Assembly (NCBI GenBank): GCA_964641615.1
Contig: CAZXNH010000002.1
Coordinates: 62,519 to 126,518 of the forward strand
Direction: 5' to 3'
DNA: 64,000 nucleotides
Source of the DNA: an uncultured Ectothiorhodospiraceae bacterium
GTDB lineage: Bacteria; Pseudomonadota; Gammaproteobacteria; J044
The notes under the pieces were generated by a model. It did not search any database. It saw nothing but the letters and a program-made list of their open reading frames with translations, and was not told the DNA's origin. This document shows, piece after piece, positions 3,729-63,843 of this stretch (position 1 is the stretch's first letter; the number at the start of each line of letters is the position of its first letter). The position numbers and the translations under genes are program-made.

Positions 3729-4565
3729 TTACTTAGCGCCTCGTGCTGCGGCCTTTTTGGCAGAAGGCCGCCTGCTTTTACGGGCCTCGGCCTTCTGCGC
3801 ATTCCTGAAGGCATTAAAGCTCTTCCGCTCCGAGGCCGGCACAAAGGATGACAGACGCTCATAAAGGGTCAGCTGGTTATTGTCCTGCAGCAGGGCAATG
3901 GCACCTTCGTAAATGATCTCGAGATGCATCACCTCGGCCAGGGTGCGTGCCTTCAGCTTGCCCGCAATCGGCAGGAAGATCATGGTCGACAACAGGGAGC
4001 CATAGAAGGTCGTCAGCAGGGCCACCGACATGGCCGGGCCGATACTGGCAGGGTCGTTCAGGGTCGATAACATCTGGATCAGACCAATCAGGGTACCCAG
4101 CAGACCAAAGGCCGGGGCATAGGTCCCCATCTTGCGGAATACGTCCTGCACCTCGAAGTGACGTGACTTCAGGGCATCGATTTCGTTGCGCAGGATCTTG
4201 CGGATCAGCTCTTCGTCCGAGGCCTCGGCCACCAGGTTGATGGCGCGCTGCATAAAGGGGGAATCCGAACTGACCTCGGAGATGCGCACAATGCCCTGGT
4301 TGCGACTGATCTTGGCCAGGTCGAGCATCTGGCCAATAATATTTTCAGCCGTCTGCTTTTCCCGGGTAAAGACATACCAGGCACCCCGGAATGCGGATCT
4401 GACCTCTGAGAAGGGAAAGGTCAGCAGGGTGGCCGCTACCGTACCCCCCAGCACAATCATGAGCCCGGGCAGGTTGGCAAAATTGTGCATATCGCCACCG
4501 AGTATGATGGCGAGCAGTATCAGGGTGAGACCGGAGACGATCCCGATCAGCGACGTTTTATCCAT
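3729..4565 (-). CDS. motA: Flagellar motor stator protein MotA (MotA/TolQ/ExbB proton-channel family)
   Basis: Four-TM proton-channel family protein, adjacent to and co-oriented with a MotB-like gene. Confidence 0.75.
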   Translation of the reverse strand: MDKTSLIGIVSGLTLILLAIILGGDMHNFANLPGLMIVLGGTVAATLLTFPFSEVRSAFRGAWYVFTREKQTAENIIGQMLDLAKISRNQGIVRISEVSSDSPFMQRAINLVAEASDEELIRKILRNEIDALKSRHFEVQDVFRKMGTYAPAFGLLGTLIGLIQMLSTLNDPASIGPAMSVALLTTFYGSLLSTMIFLPIAGKLKARTLAEVMHLEIIYEGAIALLQDNNQLTLYERLSSFVPASERKSFNAFRNAQKAEARKSRRPSAKKAAARGAK

Positions 4566-4635
4566 GGAAAAACTCCCTCTATCTTCCCAGCATATCGACC
4601 ACTGTAACCGGGAATTTAGCGGCAGTGGGTCTGGA

Positions 4636-5211
4636 TCAGCCCGAATTCTTCATCAGCAGGGTATTAATGTGATGGTGATCAAGCCGCTTGCGTACCGCAT
4701 TGACCTCATCAAGATTGCCATAGGGCCCCAGCTGAACACGATGCCAGGTTGCCTTGTTGACCTTAACCGTCTGAATGCTGGCCTCGACACCCAAAAGGGC
4801 CAGGCGGGCCTTGAGGCGATCGGCTTCATCCAGGCTCTTGAAGGAACCGGCCTGCAGGCGGTAGCTGCCCGGCTCTTCGACTACCGGCTTGCTGGTCGTT
4901 GATTCTTTTGGCTGGCGGGCCGGCTCAACGACATAATCACCCTCGGGAATCACCACCTCAAGTTCAGGTAAAAGGGTATAGAAATCAAAGCGAGGCTTTT
5001 CTTCTTCAACTTCCTCGACCTGCTGGGTGCGGGTACGGATCTCTTCGCGAGATTGCTCTACCACGCTCGCAGCTCCGGAATCAGGCAGGTCCTTCAGCCA
5101 TATCAGCACACTCACAAACAGGCCGATGGCCAGGCCGGTGAATAACCAGACCCAGCCCGGTAATGGTTTCTTTTTACTGCTGCGCATCGGTTTCTTGTAA
5201 TCCCGCGTCAT
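4636..5211 (-). CDS. SPOR-domain protein (cell-division / septal peptidoglycan-binding)
   Basis: Basic N-terminus, one TM helix, an acidic/proline-rich linker and a C-terminal SPOR domain (YRLQAGSFKSLDEADRLKARLALLGVEASIQTV...WHRVQLGPYGNLDEV). Its ATG overlaps the argS stop by 1 nt, as in Pseudomonas-type synteny. Confidence 0.75.
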   Translation of the reverse strand: MTRDYKKPMRSSKKKPLPGWVWLFTGLAIGLFVSVLIWLKDLPDSGAASVVEQSREEIRTRTQQVEEVEEEKPRFDFYTLLPELEVVIPEGDYVVEPARQPKESTTSKPVVEEPGSYRLQAGSFKSLDEADRLKARLALLGVEASIQTVKVNKATWHRVQLGPYGNLDEVNAVRKRLDHHHINTLLMKNSG

Positions 5212-12482: not shown

Positions 12483-12504
12483 CCAGGCTGACACTGACGG
12501 CCTG

Positions 12505-13353
12505 ATGAAAAAGACCCACTTCCCGGCCAACCTGAGCTGTCCACTGGATGGCGAACCGCTGAGCCTGATGGATGGCCAGTTACGCTGCCCAGGAAACCAC
12601 AGTTTTGATATCGCCCGCCAGGGCCACGTCAACCTGCTGCCTGTTCAGTTCAAACGTTCAAAAGATCCCGGTGACAGCAAGTTCATGATCGAAGCGCGCC
12701 AACGCTTCCTCGATAGCGGCGTCTACATACCCATTGCTGATGCCCTGGTTACGCGGGTCTCAGAAATCCTGCCCGATAGTGATAGCTGCAGCATCCTCGA
12801 TGCCGGCTGCGGGGAAGGCTATTACCTGGACAGACTTTGGCAGTCCCTCGACCAGGAGCGACTTGAGTGCATAGGCCTGGACATCTCCAAACCGGCCATC
12901 CTCACTGCGACACGCCGTAACAAAGAGACGACCTGGATCGTCGGCAGCAACAAACACCTTCCCGTATTGCCTGGCAGCCTGGATATCATCATCTGCCTGT
13001 TCGGCTTTCCCGTCTGGGAAGAATTTGCCCGCGCCCTGAAACCTGGCGGCAGGGTGGTACTCATTGATCCCGGTCCAGATCATCTGATTGAACTACGCCG
13101 CATCATCTATGACCGCGTTAAACAGACACCGGCACCCACGCTGGAACGGGCAGAACAAACCGGCTTCAGCCTGGATAACAGCCAGACACTCCGGTTCACC
13201 CCTGATGAACTTAACCATGCGCAGCTAATGGACCTGCTGACCATGACCCCTCATCTCTACCGCGCTAGCCAGAAAGGCCGCGATGCTGCGCAGCAGCTAC
13301 CTGGCCTTGCCGTCACGGTCGACATTCTGATCCGCACTGTTACCCGAACATAA
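12505..13353 (+). CDS. rlmA: 23S rRNA (guanine745-N1)-methyltransferase RlmA
   Basis: N-terminal zinc finger (CPLDGEPL...CPGNHSFDIARQGHVNLLPVQFKRSKDPGDS) matching the RlmA signature, followed by a SAM-methyltransferase core (ILDAGCGEGYY). Confidence 0.85.
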   Translation: MKKTHFPANLSCPLDGEPLSLMDGQLRCPGNHSFDIARQGHVNLLPVQFKRSKDPGDSKFMIEARQRFLDSGVYIPIADALVTRVSEILPDSDSCSILDAGCGEGYYLDRLWQSLDQERLECIGLDISKPAILTATRRNKETTWIVGSNKHLPVLPGSLDIIICLFGFPVWEEFARALKPGGRVVLIDPGPDHLIELRRIIYDRVKQTPAPTLERAEQTGFSLDNSQTLRFTPDELNHAQLMDLLTMTPHLYRASQKGRDAAQQLPGLAVTVDILIRTVTRT

Positions 13354-13377
13354 GTAGCCAACATTTATCTCTCGGAC

Positions 13378-13435
13378 AGTGCCACATCACGCGTACATCC
13401 CCTGATGCAATTAGATGTACGCGTGATGTGGCACT
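13378..13435. repeat. Perfect 21-bp inverted repeat (agtgccacatcacgcgtacat / atgtacgcgtgatgtggcact) with a 16-nt loop, downstream of rlmA at the edge of the low-GC islet
   Basis: Seen directly in the sequence. It has no flanking T-run, so it is not a canonical intrinsic terminator. Confidence 0.8.
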
Positions 13436-13631
13436 ACTAGCTTATCGGTAAGTTACAGTAGTCGAGGTCACTGGCTTCGTCGCCAGTAAGGCTCACGTGC
13501 CTGCAATTTAACCCTCCTTATCGTGGACTTTTTTATACTCCCGTCTGAAAGTCAGGGGTATACTCTTGCGACCCCCATGAAAAAAATAAGTCCTTATATC
13601 AAACATGGGTATAAACAAAAGGAGTCCATAA

Positions 13632-14063
13632 ATGAAAACCAAAGCACTAAGCCTTGCGGCACTATTCCTGCTCGTTGTAACTTCACTATTAAATGTAGCT
13701 ATTGCCAACGAACCTAAACAGGTTGTTATTCAGGTTAGCAGCAACGATCCCGTTACTCAGAAGATAGCGCTGAACAATGCCGTCAATCTTCAAAAGCTTT
13801 ATGGCATGGATAACGTTGTTGTTGAAATTGTCGCCTATGGCCCAGGCCTGAGCCTGATGACAAAGGCCAGCGATAATGCCAAGCGTGTTGAAAGCCTGGC
13901 CATGCAGAACATCAACTTTAGCGCCTGCATGAACACCATGAAGAACGTTGAAAAGAAGACCGGCAAAAAACCCATGCTATCGGAAGGCGTAAATACCACT
14001 CCTTCGGGTATTGCCCGTATTGTTGAACTTCAGGGTGAAGGTTACGCCTACGTACGCCCTTAA
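13632..14063 (+). CDS. Secreted DsrE/DsrF-like family protein (putative sulfur-relay/peroxiredoxin-like fold)
   Basis: Signal peptide MKTKALSLAALFLLVVTSLLNVAIA, then about 115 aa with a DsrE-like pattern (VVIQVSS..., VAYGPGL, a conserved Cys in SACMNT). Sits in a low-GC region. Confidence 0.4.
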   Translation: MKTKALSLAALFLLVVTSLLNVAIANEPKQVVIQVSSNDPVTQKIALNNAVNLQKLYGMDNVVVEIVAYGPGLSLMTKASDNAKRVESLAMQNINFSACMNTMKNVEKKTGKKPMLSEGVNTTPSGIARIVELQGEGYAYVRP

Positions 14064-14422
14064 GTACTACTTTCTGTTGCATGGCGAGGGATTGCCATAC
14101 AACAGTCATACCCAAACATGTTCTGATCCCCGCAAGAATTGATAACCAGTTAACAATATTTTTAAAACTCTTCTACTCTTGTTTGACGACAAACAATTCT
14201 TGTCCTATTTTTAATAGTGTTAAAGGCAACTCACTCGAAAGGGTGAAGACGCAAAGTCACCGGTCTAAGGGAAAATCCTATGATAGCGGGGCCGCCAGAA
14301 TCTCCGGGCATATGTCCATCTGCGGTTTCCCCTCTTCAACGAATTCAACCCTGATACCGATGCAATAACAATACGCGTCCTGCTTGCCTTTGTACTCAAC
14401 ACAAAACAAAAGGATGTTAAGG

Positions 14423-14722
14423 ATGAAACTGTCAAAGAGTATACGCACATTGCTGGCAGCGACAGGATTGCTGCTAATACAGGGAACTACTTCTGCTTCT
14501 GATTTATATGAAGGAGTTATTGCCTATAACAGTGGTGAATATGAGAAGGCCTTTGCCCTGTGGGAGCCTCTGGCCAAACAGGGTGATCATCGCGCACAGT
14601 ACAACATGGCCATGCTATATAGCAGCGGCAAGGGCGTTCCCCAAAGTGACATCGAGGCAACCAGATGGTACAAAGAAGCTGCGGCACAAGGTAACGAGTA
14701 TGCTGCTCTACACCTGAAATAA
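14423..14722 (+). CDS. Secreted Sel1-repeat (TPR-like) protein
   Basis: Signal peptide MKLSKSIRTLLAATGLLLIQGTTSA. Two Sel1-type repeats (YEKAFALWEPLAKQGDHRAQYNMAMLYSSGKGVPQSDIEATRWYKEAAAQGNEYA). An RBS (aagga) precedes the ATG at 14423. Confidence 0.6.
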   Translation: MKLSKSIRTLLAATGLLLIQGTTSASDLYEGVIAYNSGEYEKAFALWEPLAKQGDHRAQYNMAMLYSSGKGVPQSDIEATRWYKEAAAQGNEYAALHLK

Positions 14723-14778
14723 CAAAAACAACCTTGCCCCGGCTTTAGCCGGGGCCCGGGTATCAAAGGAGCAAAAAC

Positions 14779-15591
14779 ATGAACGTGATTTCAAAAGCCG
14801 TCGTTATTCTGATAATTGGCTTTTTCTCATCTGTGGGCCTGGCAAACAATGAAGAATTCCCAAATCGAAAGCTTTTTCCTGAAACCACACCTATAAGTCT
14901 CGATAAGTTAAAAGCCACAAAAAACGACACCATCATTATAGATGTACGCTCAGCCTATGAATTCGATACGCTTCATATCAAAGATGCGATAAATATTCCG
15001 CTAAATGCTTCCGACTTTACAAGCAGCCTTGAGAAGCTAAGAAAAACCAGCAACAAGCCCATCATCTTTTACTGTAACGGCAAGACCTGTAAGAAATCTT
15101 ATAAGGCAGCTCTAAAGGCTGTTAAGGCCAAGATCCCCTCAGTATTCGTTTTTGATGCTGGTATTTTTGACTGGGCCGAAGCATACCCGGAAGAAAGCAT
15201 TTTGCTTGGCAACCTTCTCAAGGATAAGGATCGACTAATTTCTTCAGCCGATCTTAAAGAACATATGCTTGATCATAAATCTTTTGTCAGGCAGGCAAAG
15301 TCGGACGATGTCATTATTCTCGACATACGTGACCCAGTACAACGAGACGGTCTACAGATTTTCGCCCATAGAGAAAACGTAGTACCTCTGGATAACGCCA
15401 AATTGCAAAAGTATGTAGACCAGGCAAAGGCCGAGAATAAAACCCTGATGATCTATGACGCGGTAGGTAAACAGGTACGCTGGTTACAGTACTACCTGGA
15501 GGATCAGCGCGCTTCTGATTATTACTTCATGAAGGGTGGTGCAGAAGCGCACTTTGAAGACTTTATTGCAAAGTATCGCAAGAAGCTTTAA
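14779..15591 (+). CDS. Secreted tandem rhodanese-domain sulfurtransferase (active first domain, second domain lacks the Cys)
   Basis: Signal peptide. Domain 1 carries the active-site loop YCNGKTCKKS after DVRSAYEFDTLHIKDAINIP. Domain 2 (ILDIRDP...MIYDAVGKQ) has no Cys. Confidence 0.7.
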   Translation: MNVISKAVVILIIGFFSSVGLANNEEFPNRKLFPETTPISLDKLKATKNDTIIIDVRSAYEFDTLHIKDAINIPLNASDFTSSLEKLRKTSNKPIIFYCNGKTCKKSYKAALKAVKAKIPSVFVFDAGIFDWAEAYPEESILLGNLLKDKDRLISSADLKEHMLDHKSFVRQAKSDDVIILDIRDPVQRDGLQIFAHRENVVPLDNAKLQKYVDQAKAENKTLMIYDAVGKQVRWLQYYLEDQRASDYYFMKGGAEAHFEDFIAKYRKKL

Positions 15592-15700
15592 TTAATATTA
15601 TTCATTGGGCTCCTTGAACACAGGGATGTGTTTTATTTTTGTTCTTTTTTAGATACAAGCATTTCGCCCCCTGGCTGTGCAGGACAGAGAGCGAAATGAT

Positions 15701-16036
15701 TTATTCAAATATCACTTTGAATTCAGCCTCTGCTGAAGACTTATCAATCTTCACCAGCATCTCCCCATAACCACTCTCAGTGGTGGGGTCAAAACCACAG
15801 GATCCACCGGCGCTGACTTCATTAAAGAAGACACTGATTTTTGCATGGATGGATTGCTCGTCCTCGGTAACAGTAAGTACGGAAACACTCAGGCTGCTGT
15901 GATCAATACTGCCACCACGCAAGCTACATTGCGCCAGCGGCAGTTGGCCTTCTGGCAACGCAGCTAATTCTTCCTTCAGCACCTGTTTGAAGGTGTCAGC
16001 GCCCCAGCTCTTTAAAGACTTCTCGAGAACAGTCAT
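15701..16036 (-). CDS. Hypothetical protein (111 aa), co-oriented immediately downstream of deaD
   Basis: ORF with moderately low GC and no motif I recognise. Start and stop are tightly packed against deaD. Confidence 0.35.
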   Translation of the reverse strand: MTVLEKSLKSWGADTFKQVLKEELAALPEGQLPLAQCSLRGGSIDHSSLSVSVLTVTEDEQSIHAKISVFFNEVSAGGSCGFDPTTESGYGEMLVKIDKSSAEAEFKVIFE

Positions 16037-16052
16037 CGCTCAACCCGAATGA

Positions 16053-17936
16053 TTATTCCTTAGGTTTACGCTTTTTGGCTTTAGGTTTACCGTGGCCTTT
16101 GGCGTCTTTCCGTTTCTTATCGTGACCTTTGCGTTTCCTGTCTGTTGAATCAAATTTTTTCCTGGCCTTTACACCCTGCCTTCTGTCACCGCCACGTTTC
16201 TCAGGCTGCTTGTCATCACCTTCGCGCCAGTCCTTGATGGGCTTCAGGTTCAGATGGCGTCCGCAGACCCAGGCCTTTTGCAGTACCTTTTCAATCTCCG
16301 GAGGCATGCCTTCTGGCAGATCGATGGTGCTGAAGTCATCGAAGATTTCCACCTGGCCAATATATTCGCTTTCAATTCCGCCTTCATTGGCAACCGCACC
16401 AATAATATTTCCGGGCTTTACATCGTGCTCATAACCTACAGCAACACGGTAACGCACCATTTCCACTTCAGGATGTTTTATAAGAGGCTTTGGCTCAAAA
16501 GAGGGCATGGCCTTTTTGGGACGTTCACCACGATCACCACGATCACGGCCCGTGCCTTTTTCATCGCGCTGACGTTCTGGTCGTTCTGGACGTTCCCTGC
16601 GTCGGCTTTCTTCCATCAGCAGCGGCTCATCACCCTGCACCATTTTCGCCAGTGCAGCAGCAATCTGCACAGGATCAATATCCTGTTCCTGCTGTAGCTC
16701 TGTGACGACCTGGTAACAGACATCCAGGTTAGCGCTGGTAATGGTATCGGCAATACGCTGTTTGAATCGGGCAACTCGCTGGACATTGATATCTGATACC
16801 GAGGGCATCTGCATGGGCTCAATCTTTTGCCGCGTGGTCCTTTCAATCGCCTTGAGCAGGCGTATCTCGCGATTAGAGACAAACAGGATGGCCTCACCAC
16901 TACGACCGGCGCGACCAGTACGGCCGATACGGTGTACATAAGACTCTGGATCGTAAGGGATATCGTAGTTTATGACATGGCTGATGCGTTCAACATCCAG
17001 GCCACGTGCAACCACATCGGTTGCGATCAGGATGTCGAGCTGGCCTTTCTTTAACTTGTCGACGATACGCTCACGCATCTTCTGCTGGATATCACCGTTA
17101 AGCGCCTCGGCGGCATAACCTCGTGCCGATAATTTTTCTGCCAGTTCTTCAGTGGCATTCTTGGTGCGAACAAAAATCAGGATGGCATCGAAGGGCTCTG
17201 ACTCGAGTATGCGCGTCAGGGCATCGAGCTTGTGCAATCCACTTACCTGCCAGTAACGCTGGCGGATGGTCTTGGCCGTTGTGGTCTTGTCCTTGATACG
17301 AACCAGCGCGGGTTCATTCAGATACGTGGTTGCCACCTTCTTGATAACGGGCGGCATAGTTGCGGAGAACAGCGCAATCTGGCGATCATCCGGTGTGTGT
17401 TCCAGGATCCATTCCACATCATCGATGAATCCCATGCGCAGCATTTCATCGGCCTCGTCCAGCACCAGACCCGTGAGGGCATCCAGCTTGAGGGTGCCGC
17501 GACGCATATGATCCATAACGCGACCCGGTGTACCGACTACCACCTGAACACCACGCTTTAACTGGCGCAGCTGAATATCGTAAGACTGACCACCGTAGAT
17601 AGGCAGGACATGAAAGTCTTTCAGATGATGGGCATAACTCTGGAAGGCCTCAGCCACCTGGATGGCCAGCTCACGCGTAGGAGCCAGTACCAGCAGCTGG
17701 GGCTGCTTCAGCCTGAGATCGAGCCTCGCCAGCATGGGCAGCGCAAAGGCTGCGGTCTTACCGGTACCGGTCTGCGCCTGGCCCAGAAGGTCACGCCCTT
17801 CCAGCAGGGTTGGAATAGTCTCGGCCTGGATAGGCGAAGGTGTCTCATAGCCCAGATCTTTCAGGGCAAGAAGTAATGGATCAGGAAGATTGAGATCCTG
17901 AAAAGTAACAGAAACGGGGGATTCTTGGTCGGTCAT
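16053..17936 (-). CDS. deaD: Cold-shock DEAD-box ATP-dependent RNA helicase DeaD/CsdA
   Basis: Q-motif, Walker A AQTGTGKT, DEAD box (VLDEADEML), SAT, HRIGRTGR, a DbpA-type RNA-binding domain, and an Arg/Lys-rich C-terminal tail. Confidence 0.9.
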   Translation of the reverse strand: MTDQESPVSVTFQDLNLPDPLLLALKDLGYETPSPIQAETIPTLLEGRDLLGQAQTGTGKTAAFALPMLARLDLRLKQPQLLVLAPTRELAIQVAEAFQSYAHHLKDFHVLPIYGGQSYDIQLRQLKRGVQVVVGTPGRVMDHMRRGTLKLDALTGLVLDEADEMLRMGFIDDVEWILEHTPDDRQIALFSATMPPVIKKVATTYLNEPALVRIKDKTTTAKTIRQRYWQVSGLHKLDALTRILESEPFDAILIFVRTKNATEELAEKLSARGYAAEALNGDIQQKMRERIVDKLKKGQLDILIATDVVARGLDVERISHVINYDIPYDPESYVHRIGRTGRAGRSGEAILFVSNREIRLLKAIERTTRQKIEPMQMPSVSDINVQRVARFKQRIADTITSANLDVCYQVVTELQQEQDIDPVQIAAALAKMVQGDEPLLMEESRRRERPERPERQRDEKGTGRDRGDRGERPKKAMPSFEPKPLIKHPEVEMVRYRVAVGYEHDVKPGNIIGAVANEGGIESEYIGQVEIFDDFSTIDLPEGMPPEIEKVLQKAWVCGRHLNLKPIKDWREGDDKQPEKRGGDRRQGVKARKKFDSTDRKRKGHDKKRKDAKGHGKPKAKKRKPKE

Positions 17937-50433: not shown

Positions 50434-51420
50434 GTGAACATGCACATTTGCACTTCCAGCCTGGGCGCTCTATGCATTCTGATCGGCATTTACCTGAATG
50501 CGGTATTCGCTGAGCCCCTGCCCCGTTGCCTATTCGTTTCTTCTTATCATCCCGGCTACGCCTGGTCAGATGGTGTAGAAAAGGGCCTGCGTGAAACTCT
50601 GGCCGGTCGTTGTGAGCTGGAACAATTTGATCTGGACACAAAGCGCATCAAGGACCCCGTACAGATCGAGAAAAAAATTACGGCTGTTCGCCGCCTTATT
50701 GAGTATTCAAGACCCGATGTAGTGATTACTGCAGATGACAATGCCGCCAAGTACCTGATTCAGCCCTATTACATCAATTCTGAAACGCCCTTTGTCTTTT
50801 GCGGTATCAACTGGTCAGCAGAAAATTATGGCTTCCCCGCCAGTAATGTGACCGGCATGATCGAGGTTGCCCCTATTAAACCTCTGATGGAATGGGCGCA
50901 ACGACTTGCGCCTCCTGCAAGGACAGCCACCTATATTGGCGCGGACACGCTGACAGAAAGGAAGAACTACGACCGGTACAAAGTTCTTGGGGAAAAAATG
51001 GGCATCGACATTACACCCCGCTTCGCTTCTACCAGTGCCAAATGGAAACAGCATTATATCGATGCTCAGCAATCAGACTTCGTCATAATGGGAAGCAACG
51101 CCGGCATCAATGACTGGCAGAGTGAAGCGCTTATCCAGTCACTGCCCGAACATACACAACGGCTGAGTATTACCGTGCATCAATGGATGATGCCTTACTC
51201 AGTCTTAGGATTTACCAAGCTCCCTGAAGAACAGGGCGTCTGGGCCGGGAAAACAGCCCTTGCTATTATTGAACAGGATATCAAACCCATTGATATCCCC
51301 GTTGTAGCCAATCGGCTATGGGATATCTGGATCAATTCACAACTGATCTCAGCAACCGGGATCGACCTGCCAGAAAGGCTTAAGCAAAAAGCAAAATTTA
51401 TGAGCGGGACTAGCCCATGA
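50434..51420 (+). CDS. Periplasmic substrate-binding-like protein (ABC_sub_bind/PF04392-like) upstream of a sensor GGDEF-EAL gene
   Basis: Signal peptide, about 300 aa with an alpha/beta periplasmic-binding-protein-like pattern. Its stop overlaps the start of the downstream GGDEF-EAL gene. Confidence 0.55.
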   Translation: MNMHICTSSLGALCILIGIYLNAVFAEPLPRCLFVSSYHPGYAWSDGVEKGLRETLAGRCELEQFDLDTKRIKDPVQIEKKITAVRRLIEYSRPDVVITADDNAAKYLIQPYYINSETPFVFCGINWSAENYGFPASNVTGMIEVAPIKPLMEWAQRLAPPARTATYIGADTLTERKNYDRYKVLGEKMGIDITPRFASTSAKWKQHYIDAQQSDFVIMGSNAGINDWQSEALIQSLPEHTQRLSITVHQWMMPYSVLGFTKLPEEQGVWAGKTALAIIEQDIKPIDIPVVANRLWDIWINSQLISATGIDLPERLKQKAKFMSGTSP

Positions 51421-54080
51421 CGCGAACCGAGTGGGGCTTCACGATTCTATTCACCCTGCTTTTTGCAGTTATTAGTGCCATTGTTTCGGGACATCTTACT
51501 CTTCAGGCAAGAACCCAGAGCTTTCAGTCAGATGCCCAGCGCATACAGGCCTCCCTGCTTGAGTCACTGGAATCCGCCCGTGGCCTGAGTGTCGCAATGG
51601 GGACACTCTACCGCACTCATGAACATATCGACTCCTCATCGTTTAGCTTTATTGCCACCGATATTCTTGATGCGAACACGGCACTCAGCACAATCACTTA
51701 TTCACCATGGCTAGAAGCCGGTCGTAAAGAGGCATTTGTTACAGCGCAGCGTGATGAAGGCTTTCCTACGTTCAGCATACAAACCCAGAAAGATTCAGAT
51801 GCCCAGACGTATTTCCTGCCATTACAGTTTATTGAGCCGTTTGATCCATTAAGTGCCCGATTCATGGGAGAAGATCTGTTTGGTAGAAAAGAGATTCAAC
51901 AGGACATCATTCAATCCATAGAGAGCAATGAATCCCGACTAGTACTTTTCAACTCACTGATGGACCATGATAACCAGCTTGCACTGATACACCCTGTTTA
52001 TTCAGGCATGGCATTACCTTCCAGTAAAGATATGCGCCTGCTTCACGCAAGGGGCCTGCTACTCTTTACGTTCAGTATCGACCAATGGGCACAGGGGCAG
52101 AACCTGACCCCGGACACAAAACTCTCACTCAATTACTGTGAAGATGAAGACGCAGAACTAACGCTAACTACCATGGAAAATTCAGGCTCTTCAGAATCCT
52201 CATTATTAAGACTCAATGAGAGCCTCGACGTCCCAACATTTCCCATTCGCATTCATATGGAAAAGGGGCTTGGATTCTCGGAGTTATCTCGTTCACCCGT
52301 CCCATTAGCAGTCATAGTCGCTACAGTCCTCGGGCTGATTTTTTCCCAGCTGATTATTAGCCGCAGGAGAATCAAGCTAAATGAGCAGGCCACAACCCTC
52401 GAGTTACAGAACATGCGGCGCCATGCCGAGACCACGCTTCAGTCTATTGGGGATGGCGTCATTACCGTGGACTCTTACCTGATTATTCGAAGCGTCAACT
52501 CAACAGCAGAAAAACTGCTCTGCAAAACAAGTGAAGAACTGGTCGGCTCCCCGGCAAACAGTGTTATCAAGCTCATCGATGAAAAAAGCGGCAAACCCCT
52601 CGGCCTCTTTAGTTCACGTGAGCACGATATTTCTCGAAACCACATTATTCTCTCTCGTTCAGGCAATACCGAACTTCCCGTCGAAATCGACATTCGTAAC
52701 CTGCATGGTAATCACGAAGAAGACATGGGTCAGGTTATTGTTCTACGGGATGTCAGCACAGAAAGAGAGCTCAGCAGGGAGCTTCGTTATCAGGCTACAC
52801 ATGACCTGCTTACCGGCCTGATGAACCGTTATGCCTTTGACCAGGAATTGCAGGCCGCACTTAAGTCTTCTCATCGCAATGGTTCGCATCATGTCCTGTG
52901 CTATCTCGATCTTGACCAGTTCAAACTAATTAACGATACCTGTGGCCACATGGCTGGAGATGAGGTTCTTAAACAGGTTACTTCCGTGATACACAATCAG
53001 CTCAGATCACAGGACATGTTTGCCAGGCTGGGCGGTGACGAGTTCGGAATCCTTCTGAGTAACTGTCCGCTTGATAAGGCCCAGGAAATCGCCGAACGGA
53101 TCAGATGCTCTATTCATGATTTTCGTTTTCCCTGGGAAGAAAAGGTTTTTGATCTGCGTGTAAGCATCGGCCTGGTACCCATCACCGATAACGCAGAAAG
53201 CATGACTGAACTGTTATCTGCTGCCGATGTTGCCTGTTACACTGCTAAAGATCGCGGCAGAGATCAGATATATACCTATCAGAGTGATGATGAATCTATC
53301 TCTGAAAGGCATGGGCAGATGCAATGGCTACCAATACTCCAGGATGCCCTAAGAGAAAATCATTTCACATTAAACCTGCAACCCATTCTCCCAATCTCCA
53401 GCAACAAGCTGCCCCGGATATATGAATTCCTGATCAGGCTAAATCACCCTGATAACACGCCCAGCCTTCCAGGAAGCTTTTTACCCGCTGCTGAACGCTA
53501 TGACCTGATGCGTGAAATTGATACCTGGGTTATTTATCACTGCTTTGAACTGATTCATTCCTACAGGCTGCCAGATAATGTCTGTTTCTCGATCAACCTG
53601 TCTGGCCAGTCTCTGACCGATCCAATGCTGGTTACCCGAATTCTGCAGGCTAATGAGGCTTACCCGGTTGACCCTTCCCGCATTTATTTTGAAATCACTG
53701 AAACCTCGGCGATAACCAGCCTCGCGGCGACCACTGAATTAATCAACAGGCTACGTGCACTGGACTATCGCTTTGCGCTGGATGACTTCGGTTCCGGCTT
53801 CAGCTCATATTCTTATCTGAGCAAGCTACCAGTAGACCTGTTAAAGATTGACGGACAGTTTGTCCGGGATATTAATGAGAATAAAATTCACCATACCCTT
53901 GTTAAAGGCATCCGCGAAATTGCCGAGGTCCTGAACGTGGCAACCATAGCCGAGTTTGTCGAATCGCAGGAAATTGTTGAATCAATCGATAAGCTGGGTA
54001 TTGAATATATGCAGGGTTACCATTGTGGCCGTCCGGACTCAGCAAAAACTATACTCGAAAATATCTCTGTCACTGAATAA
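51417..54080 (+). CDS. Membrane-anchored sensor GGDEF-EAL protein: periplasmic CHASE-like domain, TM helix, PAS, GGDEF, EAL
   Basis: N-terminal TM helix, a periplasmic domain of about 280 aa, a second TM helix, PAS, GGDEF ([12 protein letters not shown]) and EAL ([37 protein letters not shown]). Confidence 0.9.
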
Positions 54081-61000: not shown

Positions 61001-62860
61001 CTATCCCTGTTTCTGTAGCCAGGCTTCAAGATCATATTTTCCAATCGGCTTACTGATAAAATAACCCTGCAATTTATCCACGCTCATCTGATCCAGCAGG
61101 TCCAGAGTCGACTGGTCTTCCACGCCTTCTGCCACGACCTGGCAATCGAGATTATGACCCAGCTCAATAACCGTCTTAACAACGGCCCGATCGGTCTGAT
61201 CTGTACACATATCGGAAATAAAGCTTCGATCAATCTTCAGTGCATCCACCGGTAGTTTCTTCAGGTAATTCAGGGAAGAAAAGCCGGTTCCAAAATCATC
61301 GATCGCAATCTGTACGCCGAGCTCACTGAGCGCACTCAGTATCTTCCCTGCTCGGACAAGGTCCTGCATCAATGCCGTTTCTGTTATCTCGAGCTGGACC
61401 TTTTCGGCAGCGACACCATGCATCTGTAAAAGTGCCTGTATATCATCAGGCAGAGAAAGATTTTGAATACTGTATACAGAAAGATTCACACTGACACCGA
61501 AGTCATACCCCTGCTTGTTCCAGCGAGCCAGGTCCTTCAAGGACTGATCCAGTATTTGCATGGTCAGAACATTGATAAGCCCCATTTGCTCTGCCATCGA
61601 TATAAATTCATCCGGTGGTATCCCACCAAGCTCGGGGTGATCCCAACGCGCAAGCGCTTCTACATAGGCTAAATCATGTGATGACGTATCCACAACAGGC
61701 TGATAGGCCAGGTGAATATTCTGGTTTTTAACAGTATCACGCAGGTCACTCATCAGGCGCAGACGACGCACAGTATGTTTATTCTGTTCAGGGTCATAGA
61801 GTGCAAAACCGGATTGAGATTGCTTCGCCTGGTACATTGCAATATCAGCATATTTCATAAGATCATCAGCTTCCTGTGCATGTTCCGGAAAGATGCTGAT
61901 ACCGATGCTCGCCTTACTCTCTGTAGTGATGTTGTCAATAACAAACGGCTTACTCATCGCATACAGGATACGGTTAGCACATAATTCTGCACCCTTATAA
62001 TCTGTATGCGGCAATAATACCGCGAACTCATCTCCTCCAAGGCGCGCTATTGAGTCATTGAGTCGCACTGACTCTTTCAGGCGCACACTCACAACCTTTA
62101 ACAACTTGTCTCCAAACTGGTGTCCAAGAGTGTCATTGATTTCCTTGAAGCGATCCAGGTCAATCAGAAACAAGGCAAAACTCTGCTGGTATCTTTTTGC
62201 ATCGAATAGAATCCGCTCTATACGATCATTGAGCAATGTGCGATTTGGTAACCCGGTTAACGTGTCATGCAGGGCAAGATGCTGAAGTTGCAGGTTTTTC
62301 TTATCCAGCTCACGCGAGATCTTGGAGCTCAGGATGAGGCCTATCCAGACTGCAACCCACAGGATTACAAATCCTGAAGTGACCAGGCGAAGCTTGAGTG
62401 TTGATGCAATATCTGAATCGCCAGTACTGGCCGGTTTGAGCATGACGAGCTCATACTGTACATCTGGCAATGGGCTGACTGCCCAGTAATACTGCCTATC
62501 GGATAACTCAATTAAACTGTGATGATCTGCTGAAATCTCTTTCAGCCTTTCCAGAAGCACATCATAGGCAAATTCTGCTTCACCCGAACGATAGAGCAAC
62601 TCACCATCTTTTTGTATCAACAGAATAGAATCTTGCCCAAAGAACCTCTGTTGCAAGCGATCAAGATAAGCCTGGGTATCCCGCTGATTGTCCGCCAGTG
62701 TAATTTGCTGGGAGATGTTCCCTGAAAATCGCGTCAGTACCTCGGTTAACTGCTCATTTCGACTATCTAAAAGCTGACGATACGCAAGCACGCCAAAGAC
62801 AATCTGTGCGAGTATAGTGACCCCTAAGATAGATAGCAGTATCTGCTTATTGAGCGTCAT
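61001..62860 (-). CDS. Membrane sensor GGDEF-EAL protein (periplasmic domain between two TM helices)
   Basis: TM helices at about residues 8-28 and 160-180. GGDEF (RLGGDEFAVLL). EAL motifs (LEITETAL, DDFGTGFSSLNYL, KIDRSFISD, EGVED). Confidence 0.9.
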   Translation of the reverse strand: MTLNKQILLSILGVTILAQIVFGVLAYRQLLDSRNEQLTEVLTRFSGNISQQITLADNQRDTQAYLDRLQQRFFGQDSILLIQKDGELLYRSGEAEFAYDVLLERLKEISADHHSLIELSDRQYYWAVSPLPDVQYELVMLKPASTGDSDIASTLKLRLVTSGFVILWVAVWIGLILSSKISRELDKKNLQLQHLALHDTLTGLPNRTLLNDRIERILFDAKRYQQSFALFLIDLDRFKEINDTLGHQFGDKLLKVVSVRLKESVRLNDSIARLGGDEFAVLLPHTDYKGAELCANRILYAMSKPFVIDNITTESKASIGISIFPEHAQEADDLMKYADIAMYQAKQSQSGFALYDPEQNKHTVRRLRLMSDLRDTVKNQNIHLAYQPVVDTSSHDLAYVEALARWDHPELGGIPPDEFISMAEQMGLINVLTMQILDQSLKDLARWNKQGYDFGVSVNLSVYSIQNLSLPDDIQALLQMHGVAAEKVQLEITETALMQDLVRAGKILSALSELGVQIAIDDFGTGFSSLNYLKKLPVDALKIDRSFISDMCTDQTDRAVVKTVIELGHNLDCQVVAEGVEDQSTLDLLDQMSVDKLQGYFISKPIGKYDLEAWLQKQG

Positions 62861-63504: not shown

Positions 63505-63843
63505 TTAATGAACACTACCGAATGAAAGGTCCAGGGAATCTCCCGGTTCTTCAATACCCAATAACTGGCAGCCCTGATGGATCGGACCACCTGGGAAAAG
63601 TTCATACAGATGCTTCTTGCCTCCCTGCTCCTCAAATTGTTCCTGCAATGCCTGTGTCAGCTCTCGTCCGGATGAGTCGTCATCCTCGGCCACGAACTGG
63701 AAGATAATCTTTAACACACCCCAGTGTTCTGCAGTGAGGTCGATACCGGCTGCTTCGGCTCGACTCACAACACCTTGCTTATCGATTTCAGGCTTTGGTT
63801 CCTTGGTGTTATCGACACCCCATTCATTAATATCAGCGTTCAC
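63505..63843 (-). CDS. TusE/DsrC/DsvC-family protein with a noncanonical C-terminus (CysB-position Cys present; terminal GLPKPxGC replaced by an acidic ...DLSFGSVH tail)
   Basis: AEHWGVLKIIFQFV...KKHLYELFPGGPIHQGCQLLGIEEPGDSLDLSFGSVH. Compare TusE ...[27 protein letters not shown]. Confidence 0.65.
   Translation of the reverse strand: MNADINEWGVDNTKEPKPEIDKQGVVSRAEAAGIDLTAEHWGVLKIIFQFVAEDDDSSGRELTQALQEQFEEQGGKKHLYELFPGGPIHQGCQLLGIEEPGDSLDLSFGSVH

Follow-up and report, generated by a model that had tools for sequence, protein, structure and literature searches.

A c-di-GMP-I riboswitch aptamer upstream of a sel1-tandem rhodanese operon in an AT-rich islet of an uncultured Ectothiorhodospiraceae bacterium

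In a 64,000-nucleotide (nt) stretch from an uncultured Ectothiorhodospiraceae bacterium (contig CAZXNH010000002.1, positions 62,519 to 126,518; hereafter the window, numbered from its first letter), an AT-rich islet downstream of rlmA holds three co-oriented genes, encoding a DsrE-like protein, a Sel1-repeat protein (sel1) and a tandem rhodanese (rhd2), and between the first two a full-length riboswitch aptamer of the cyclic di-guanosine monophosphate class I (c-di-GMP-I, or GEMM-I). The islet is best explained, at a probability of roughly 0.7, as a solitary gene for a putatively exported DsrE-fold protein followed by an independent, riboswitch-controlled sel1-rhd2 operon. Two transcription units were assigned because a hairpin lies behind the DsrE-like stop codon, a promoter and the riboswitch lie before sel1, and a terminator-like hairpin lies behind rhd2 (Table 1); because the promoter and the full-length riboswitch are situated in the gap between the DsrE-like gene and sel1, the aptamer, sel1 and rhd2 were taken as the functional unit. 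A preliminary description of the same sequence had overlooked the riboswitch at 14215-14299 and taken the islet as one sulfur-trafficking module of three exported proteins; the three families and the likely export were upheld, while the single module was not, given the separate transcription units and a distant relative that has the operon without the DsrE-like gene. Its observations were thus confirmed and its interpretation was partly supported.

The aptamer, its leader and the conserved operon

The aptamer scored 66.7 bits against Rfam RF01051 (gathering score 35, E-value 3.7e-12), with a full-length match (model positions 1-87 of 87) that was the only Rfam match in the 64-kb window. It lies in the 320-nt gap between the DsrE-like gene and sel1 and ends 123 nt before the sel1 ATG on the same strand, i.e. 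in a 5′ regulatory position. GEMM RNAs are recognised by a GNRA tetraloop on P1, an AAA linker and a P2 that contains a tetraloop receptor whenever that loop is GAAA (PMC1950547). The alignment to the model displayed this architecture, namely a P1 with a GAAA tetraloop (CGAAAG), the AAA linker (GACGC-AAA-GUC) and a P2 with a tetraloop-receptor-like CUAAG/UAUG (CUAAGG...CCUAUGA). In four close relatives, i.e. the loci L087, L091, L092 and L093 (related loci carry the prefix L), the aptamer was 99-100% identical, against a background identity of 91-97%. Among eight distinct aptamers, 94.7% of the cells were paired and nine pairs had changed on both sides, in an alignment that was fitted to the model and is hence biased toward the structure; none of 500 shuffles was as good, and slid controls reached 31-48%. 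All eight carry a G at model position 11, which we take to be the equivalent of G20 of Vc2 and to mark selectivity for c-di-GMP rather than cyclic GMP-AMP (cGAMP), and the predicted ligand is c-di-GMP. A 95-amino acid (aa) open reading frame (ORF) at 14081-14368 was treated as spurious because it matches no family and the aptamer overlies it.

The Vibrio cholerae riboswitches Vc1 (gbpA) and Vc2 (tfoY) belong to the same class RF01051, and here too the aptamer occupies the 5′ leader of an operon for putatively exported proteins. Unlike in published GEMM riboswitches, the regulated genes are those of a Sel1-repeat protein and a tandem rhodanese: neither family appeared in the portion of the published GEMM gene-family text available for searching, and literature searches returned no co-occurrence of a c-di-GMP riboswitch with rhodanese or Sel1 genes. 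The riboswitch is an ordinary member of a well-known class, and the regulated gene class is new.

Judging by the sigma-70-like promoter, transcription would start at the 5′ edge of the aptamer. L087, L091 and the distant L094 all keep the -35 block CTGTTTGAC and the -10 CCTAyTTT of this promoter, although identity in the surrounding spacer drops to 74-78% in L087, L091 and L092. In the unconstrained fold of all three leaders the alternative hairpin of Table 1 was present, with a P2 pair probability of 0.00; its inner stem displays compensatory changes between relatives, and its 3′ arm (14319-14334) is a conserved block in L094. In the free fold the candidate switching segment UUGCCUUU pairs with nt 8-15 of the aptamer with probabilities of 0.5-0.87; when the aptamer was enforced, this pairing moved to the Shine-Dalgarno (SD) region, and the TTGCCT is conserved in L094. 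The SD sequence CAAAAGGAT together with ATGAAA is conserved in four lineages. Upon enforcing the aptamer, the unpaired probability of the SD fell from 0.80 to 0.34 in the window, from 0.60 to 0.20 in L091 and from 0.83 to 0.63 in L094, a modest effect in a model of equilibrium folding that ignores kinetics.

By the mechanism proposed from this modelling, binding of c-di-GMP would close the aptamer helices P1 and P2, the closed aptamer would withdraw its 5′ AAAGGCAA and the 3′ strand of P2 from the alternative pairing with downstream leader segments, and the segments so freed would alter the accessibility of the sel1 ribosome-binding site. The modelled direction is ‘off’, i.e. c-di-GMP might turn the translation of sel1-rhd2 down, to which we give a little less than even odds. 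Within the transcript, a GC-rich hairpin occupies the 56-nt spacer between sel1 and rhd2; L087 and L091 retain its stem, L094 has a shortened version, and the hairpin may control the proportion of Sel1 to rhodanese product. The transcript probably ends at the terminator-like hairpin behind rhd2, which L092 and L095 conserve in full.

A total of 13 metagenome contigs encode the identical rhodanese in the same gene order, and the whole islet is kept in L087, L091, L092 and L093, in which UbiB is 97-99% and DeaD 96% identical. At the more distant L094 (SucB 77% identical), the aptamer (71.8 bits), Sel1 (71% identical) and the tandem rhodanese (67%) were found in the order multihaem cytochrome, terminator, promoter, aptamer, Sel1, tandem rhodanese, single-domain rhodanese and sucB, with none of the DsrE-like gene, rlmA, p111 and deaD at the locus. 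Because L094 keeps the unit without the DsrE-like gene, the conserved unit is aptamer-sel1-rhd2. Of its neighbours in L094, the upstream cytochrome gene (252-2648) encodes 798 aa, and the extra single-domain rhodanese gene downstream (4393-4935) is low in guanine-plus-cytosine content (GC) too (0.47).

Table 1. Features of the islet and its borders, in window positions
Feature	Position	Strand	Description
Inverted repeat	13378..13435	.	Perfect, arms of 22 nt (13378-13399 with 13414-13435), loop of 14 nt, downstream of rlmA
DsrE-like gene	13632..14063	+	143-aa predicted-exported DsrE-fold protein of the MTH1491/ST0148 branch; own transcription unit
Hairpin	14074..14105	+	11 pairs and one mismatch, 11 nt past the DsrE-like stop codon; read from the sequence
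Sigma-70-like promoter	14183..14211	+	TTGACG, 17 nt, TATTTT
c-di-GMP-I (GEMM-I) aptamer	14215..14299	+	Rfam RF01051
Alternative hairpin	14286..14334	+	5′ arm formed by the P2 3′ strand of the aptamer, GCGGGGCCGCCAGA; 3′ arm UCUGCGGUUUCCCCUC
Candidate switching segment	14384..14391	+	UUGCCUUU; partner of the aptamer 5′ AAAGGCAA in the free fold, of the ribosome-binding region with the aptamer closed
SD and sel1 start	14410..14425	+	AAGGA; ATG at 14423
sel1	14423..14722	+	Predicted-exported 99-aa protein with Sel1-like repeats; first gene of the riboswitch operon
Intercistronic GC-rich hairpin	14736..14755	+	GCCCCGGC-TTTA-GCCGGGGC, 8 bp, between sel1 and rhd2
rhd2	14779..15591	+	Predicted-exported 270-aa tandem rhodanese; domain 1 loop C99-N-G-K-T-C104, domain 2 with Asp227 at the catalytic position
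Terminator-like hairpin and T-rich tract	15611..15650	+	Behind rhd2
Hairpin	15660..15698	.	CATTTCGC...GCGAAATG, between the convergent rhd2 and p111; read from the sequence

The predicted proteins of the islet

The assignment of the three genes to the DsrE, Sel1 and rhodanese families, made in the preliminary description, was borne out by their Pfam matches. Sel1 (PF08238) was matched with 45.6 bits (cut-off 30.7) and Rhodanese (PF00581) with 79.7 bits (cut-off 22.2) in two stretches, while the match to DsrE (PF02635) was marginal, at 22.9 bits against a cut-off of 22.7, and the DsrE fold was recognised through MTH1491, as detailed below. Export of all three proteins, likewise claimed before, is likely by rule-of-thumb features: each has a basic N-terminus, an 11-residue hydrophobic core with a Kyte-Doolittle score of 2.3-3.0 and an AxA-like site (AIA/N, TSA/S and GLA/N, respectively), and the homologues of the DsrE-like protein and of the rhodanese retain variable hydrophobic N-termini in the alignments. 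The cytoplasmic neighbours RlmA and p111, taken as controls, lacked the export features, with hydrophobic-core scores of 0.4-0.75.

The product of rhd2 has the two rhodanese domains and the CNGKTC loop that had been reported for it. Its only two cysteines, Cys99 and Cys104, stand five residues apart in that one loop and are invariant in 33 homologues; further invariants of the family are FPxRxxYP, YCNGxxCxKSY in domain 1, YDAxGKQ in domain 2, with Asp in place of the catalytic Cys, and a signal-like N-terminus. A predicted local distance difference test (pLDDT) score of 89.2 was obtained for the AlphaFold2 (AF2) model, and the matches in the PDB were generic only (best 6mxv, E-value 4e-11 by sequence; whole-chain template modelling (TM) score < 0.4). 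Among curated equivalogs, GlpE and PspE cut-offs were far from reached, and the best curated match of domain 1 was the rhodanese/DsbD-fusion selenoprotein TsoB.

Exported rhodaneses are a recognised category, ‘pRho’, in surveys of sulfur metabolism (PMC13047784). With these and with Escherichia coli PspE and YnjE and Wolinella succinogenes Sud, rhd2 has in common a rhodanese fold, here with predicted export, and a catalytic Cys in a six-residue loop, and YnjE was among the fold matches of the model; unlike PspE, YnjE and Sud, rhd2 has its presumed active domain first and an Asp-substituted domain second, an extra invariant Cys in the loop and a putative wiring to c-di-GMP. Bovine rhodanese, Azotobacter RhdA and E. 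coli SseA also combine one catalytic and one non-catalytic rhodanese domain. The C-terminal domain is the active one in such classical tandem rhodaneses, so the domain order of rhd2 is reversed, and it differs from them further in its predicted export and by a whole-chain root-mean-square deviation (rmsd) of 14-16 Å. The N-terminal domain most likely carries a persulfide on Cys99, which Cys104 could resolve or with which Cys99 could form a disulfide, and the C-terminal domain, having Asp for Cys, would be non-catalytic.

Gene callers start the sel1 product at the 14423 ATG. In NCBIfam it weakly resembled ExoR, MerG and MotX (32 bits versus equivalog cut-offs of 330-450), which are periplasmic and built of Sel1 repeats, of a type that acts by binding partner proteins; a small exported protein of this kind is predicted here too, but the similarity is at the level of the repeats only, and the 99-aa product is far shorter. 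The Sel1 protein could act as an adaptor, perhaps in contact with the rhodanese.

The DsrE-like protein is clearly related to MTH1491 and ST0148, which form an uncharacterised branch of the DsrE/DsrF superfamily. Its family profile matched the PDB chain of MTH1491 (1l1s_A) with an E-value of 3.3e-18, and its AF2 model (pLDDT 92.7) matched 1l1s in Foldseek with an E-value of 1e-10 and a TM score of 0.93. The 3773 homologues are tightly conserved, all of about 143 aa and with hydrophobic N-termini, and have an invariant Cys99 within an FSACxNT motif, which aligns with FCACSNT of MTH1491; both the DsrE fold and the conserved cysteine are present. MTH1491 (1l1s) and ST0148 (2pd2) have the same fold, and the FxACxNT cysteine motif and a C-terminal GYAYIRP are common with MTH1491; unlike both, the islet protein has a signal peptide by the rules of thumb. 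DsrEFH and TusBCD are more distant kin, the DsrEFH chains being matched weakly (E-values of about 4e-3 to 9e-3), and unlike in those systems no DsrF/DsrH-type partner genes adjoin the gene. Relay partners (DsrF/DsrH or TusC/TusB) were encoded neither in the islet nor beside two sampled homologues, and the predicted location is not cytoplasmic, so membership in a DsrEFH/TusBCD relay was not supported. In both of the two contexts sampled, the homologues are solitary genes in unrelated surroundings, and a DsrE-like neighbour was found in none of about 160 other rhodanese loci. The hairpin behind the gene, identical in L087 and L091 and with no T-run behind it, is probably the 3′ end or a stabiliser of its transcript; L094 has a classical terminator at the equivalent place, behind a different gene.

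Composition and history of the islet

The contrast of an AT-rich islet with its flanks, on which the preliminary description had rested, was reproduced. In 1-kb segments GC was 0.56 at 12501-13500, 0.44-0.45 over 13501-16000 and 0.51-0.54 by 16001-17500, with 0.54-0.58 in the flanks on both sides, and the islet genes have a GC of 0.42-0.47 versus a window median of 0.55, a departure from the composition of the host. GC at third codon positions (GC3) was 0.50 in the DsrE-like gene, 0.47 in sel1, 0.45 in rhd2 (the lowest among 54 window ORFs) and 0.51 in p111, with a median of 0.615 for the 54 ORFs; as the drop is visible at third positions, it is not an amino-acid effect alone. The islet is atypical, not unique, since five other patches of the window have a GC3 of about 0.49, including those of two GGDEF genes and a DsrC-like gene. 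At 28193-30619, 51417-54080 and 61001-62860 the window encodes three large proteins with a GGDEF motif, the latter two in such low-GC patches (GC3 0.49) and next to the DsrC-like gene (63505-63843).

Divergence from the relatives is mosaic within the operon. Against a background among relatives of 91-97% nt identity and a synonymous divergence (dS) of 0.1-0.24, codons 1-140 of rhd2 (14779-15198, the signal peptide and catalytic domain) were 79% identical to L087, L091 and L092, with a dS of 1.17 and a ratio of nonsynonymous to synonymous divergence (dN/dS) of 0.12, while codons 141-270 (15199-15591, domain 2) were 95% identical with a dS of 0.18-0.23; sel1 was 97.7% identical in L087 and 82% in L091 and L092 (dS 0.64). 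The mosaic indicates allele replacement by recombination and not positive selection, and diversifying selection on rhodanese domain 1 was rejected in view of the dN/dS of 0.12 at a dS of 1.17. These sequence comparisons point to recombination break-points within the sel1-rhd2 operon. In the same metagenome sample as the window contig, the locus L088 (1-15784) carries a 65%-identical rhodanese, with neither riboswitch nor Sel1 gene, among TraG-like, ISL3 transposase, MerR, cation-efflux and signal-peptidase II genes.

The signatures of a mobile genomic island were lacking: no tRNA was found anywhere in the 64-kb window, no direct repeats bracket the islet, and no integrase-like ORF (nor other mobility gene nearby) was seen within 11.5-18.5 kb. 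A comparison of synteny, proposed to see whether rlmA and deaD are normally adjacent, found the islet in every relative recovered and no islet-free relative within the limits of the search, and L094 carries the operon in different gene surroundings. These observations, together with a strain-specific inverted repeat, count against a recent island. The atypical composition and mosaic divergence speak for the horizontal acquisition suggested earlier, the missing mobility genes, tRNA and direct repeats speak against it, and that the islet DNA is foreign or recombined appears plausible.

The inverted repeat on the left had been described as a perfect 21-bp repeat marking the edge. It is perfect only in the window strain, with 22-nt arms and only two arm matches where none are expected by chance, and was rejected as an island border or mobile-element end, since L087, L091 and L092 have the same islet with the loop and right arm in common and a different left arm that is 9 nt longer. 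The left arm of this palindrome looks rewritten from the right arm, in a template-switch-like event. Rfam microRNA-family matches of the repeat (27.6 bits versus a threshold of 70, and 26.2 versus 90) are long-palindrome artefacts. On the right, the hairpin reported at 15660-15698 is present and kept in L092 and L095 except for one loop base. Beyond it, the deaD-linked p111 (15701-16036, minus strand) encodes 111 aa with only a weak PLD-like match (20.8 bits versus 27); its GC3 is lowered like that of the islet, and it is absent at the equivalent position of L094.

The rhodanese family and c-di-GMP

A total of 1777 rhd2 homologues were collected, and those in genomes come from nearly exclusively metagenome-assembled genomes of sulfur-oxidising Gammaproteobacteria (Thiohalomonadaceae, Ectothiorhodospiraceae, Acidiferrobacterales, Guyparkeria, Halothiobacillus and a lucinid symbiont). 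When a covariance model built from the aptamers was run over 164 rhodanese loci, the riboswitch was found in the window lineage, L094 and L083 only, in agreement with Rfam scans of 39 loci, in which no class II c-di-GMP riboswitch was found either. A regular-expression search for the GEMM core gave matches in L152 and L170 that proved false upon alignment, and it missed true aptamers with GGCAAC instead of GGCAAA.

In L083 the aptamer (54.4 bits) stands directly before a divergent paralogue, 32% identical and with the same motifs, which defines a sister subfamily of 30 proteins, including one of the sulfur-oxidising endosymbiont of the snail Gigantopelta aegis. In six further sister-subfamily loci an aptamer that passes the threshold (36.7-56.1 bits) precedes the gene by 55-106 nt, so that a c-di-GMP-I aptamer lies directly upstream in all seven loci sampled, with flanking genes that differ each time. 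In nine loci of another clade, the rhodanese gene is followed in the same orientation by a PilZ-domain gene (Pfam E-value 2e-10), at a distance of 3-221 nt. L043, L057, L098 and L129, in addition to L094, have a Sel1 gene immediately ahead of the rhodanese and in the same orientation, and in six loci a Sel1-repeat gene is found nearby on the opposite strand. GGDEF neighbours in 17 rhodanese loci were not counted because their distance and strand are heterogeneous and GGDEF genes are common, as the three in the window exemplify.

Other features of the family were observed along with these. Clustering of the neighbours yielded no sulfur-oxidation gene as a conserved neighbour of the rhodanese. 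Thiol-redox genes (glutaredoxin, thioredoxin-like, AhpC and DsbD) occur near the sister-subfamily gene in four of the seven loci (L177 4900-5286, L178 4939-5175, L180 4828-6801 and L175 8033-8428). In the clade with PilZ neighbours, a cobalamin riboswitch, on the strand opposite to the rhodanese and some 200 nt ahead of it, presumably serves a divergent gene (minus strand; L036 4586-4802, L037 4627-4808, L039 2662-2872 and L041 457-630); L037 has a Sel1 neighbour and no PilZ match. In L007, L025, L027, L032, L034, L067, L096 and L107 the rhodanese gene is duplicated in tandem, with neighbouring copies that are 42-58% identical to the query.

Taken over the family, these arrangements could mean that c-di-GMP directly gates a periplasmic enzyme handling sulfane sulfur or thiols across sulfur-oxidising Gammaproteobacteria, including chemosynthetic animal symbionts, through at least three separate wirings: a riboswitch on the gene in the sister subfamily, a riboswitch on the sel1-rhd2 operon in the window lineage and L094, and an adjacent PilZ gene in another clade. 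We put this reading forward tentatively, at distinctly less than an even chance. For the preferred explanation of the islet itself, a riboswitch-controlled sel1-rhd2 operon, the sister-subfamily aptamers, the PilZ and Sel1 neighbours and the three GGDEF proteins encoded in the window were counted in favour, and several points weigh against it. Most members of the window's own rhodanese subfamily have no c-di-GMP riboswitch. No canonical terminator was found 3′ of the aptamer, unlike in the known c-di-GMP-I examples compared, and the SD effect is weak in L094, so the expression platform is uncertain; for the leaders of the sister subfamily, thermodynamic modelling showed no change that depended on the ligand and was uninformative. 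The signal peptides were assessed by rules of thumb alone, the sulfurtransferase chemistry was assumed from the fold, and the TsoB match and the thiol-redox neighbours in the sister subfamily fit a thiol-redox role equally well.

That role is a serious rival, though we consider it rather unlikely: the rhodanese would be a thiol-disulfide or redox protein of the periplasm, or else a binding module devoid of catalysis, whose CxxxxC loop cycles between dithiol and disulfide and which is switched together with envelope remodelling under c-di-GMP. The confinement of the only two, invariant cysteines to one loop, the TsoB match, the redox genes of L175, L177, L178 and L180 and the want of a conserved sulfur-oxidation neighbour all agree with it; yet sulfurtransferase-type rhodaneses have an active-site loop of the same six-residue length, the family occurs mainly in sulfur-oxidising Gammaproteobacteria and symbionts, and the redox neighbours differ between loci. 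Of lower standing still is the view that the low GC is not foreign and stems from the amino-acid make-up and weak codon bias of a set of exported proteins expressed at a low level. In most genomes the rhodanese gene is indeed somewhat richer in AT than its flanks (median -0.036 over 131 loci, more than 0.03 lower in 79 of them), the islet is in every relative sampled, and no mobility genes or tRNA lie nearby, but the deficit of -0.10 in the window and in L094 amounts to some three times the family norm and is seen at third codon positions, the dS of rhd2 domain 1 and of sel1 in L091 exceeds the background and so shows imported alleles, and a homologue resides in the conjugative-element-like context of L088.

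The least probable of the explanations weighed is that the DsrE-like protein, a Sel1 adaptor and the rhodanese constitute one exported sulfur relay, a periplasmic analogue of Tus/Dsr, acquired together as an island. Adjacent and co-oriented genes with signal-peptide-like N-termini and low GC3 throughout, an arrangement kept in the four close relatives and an invariant cysteine in each catalytic candidate are what such a relay would display. It is opposed by the separation of the transcription units, with a hairpin behind the first gene and an own promoter and riboswitch for the others, by L094, which keeps aptamer-sel1-rhd2 without the DsrE-like gene, by the solitary state of that gene elsewhere and its absence from the other rhodanese loci, and by differing divergence histories within the islet, which argue against a single acquisition. 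A solitary DsrE-fold gene beside a riboswitch-controlled sel1-rhd2 operon is thus preferred. The attractive reading of a periplasmic Dsr-like relay is corrected thereby, and a predicted-exported DsrE-fold protein of the MTH1491 type is recognised as a widespread solitary gene.

The outputs of c-di-GMP in sulfur oxidisers are poorly mapped; in Acidithiobacillus caldus, motility and sulfur adherence are under the control of c-di-GMP, and this adherence to sulfur surfaces in Acidithiobacillus was the only link found (PMC4331095). Here, one uncharacterised family of putatively exported rhodaneses, from uncultured sulfur oxidisers and including a member from a snail endosymbiont, is tied to c-di-GMP by three independent arrangements, and this family-wide pattern constitutes a testable hypothesis. 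If it is true, sulfur acquisition or the periplasmic redox state would be a previously unrecognised output of the motile-to-sessile switch, which may serve to couple attachment to sulfur or sulfide surfaces, or to host tissue, with the mobilisation of sulfur.

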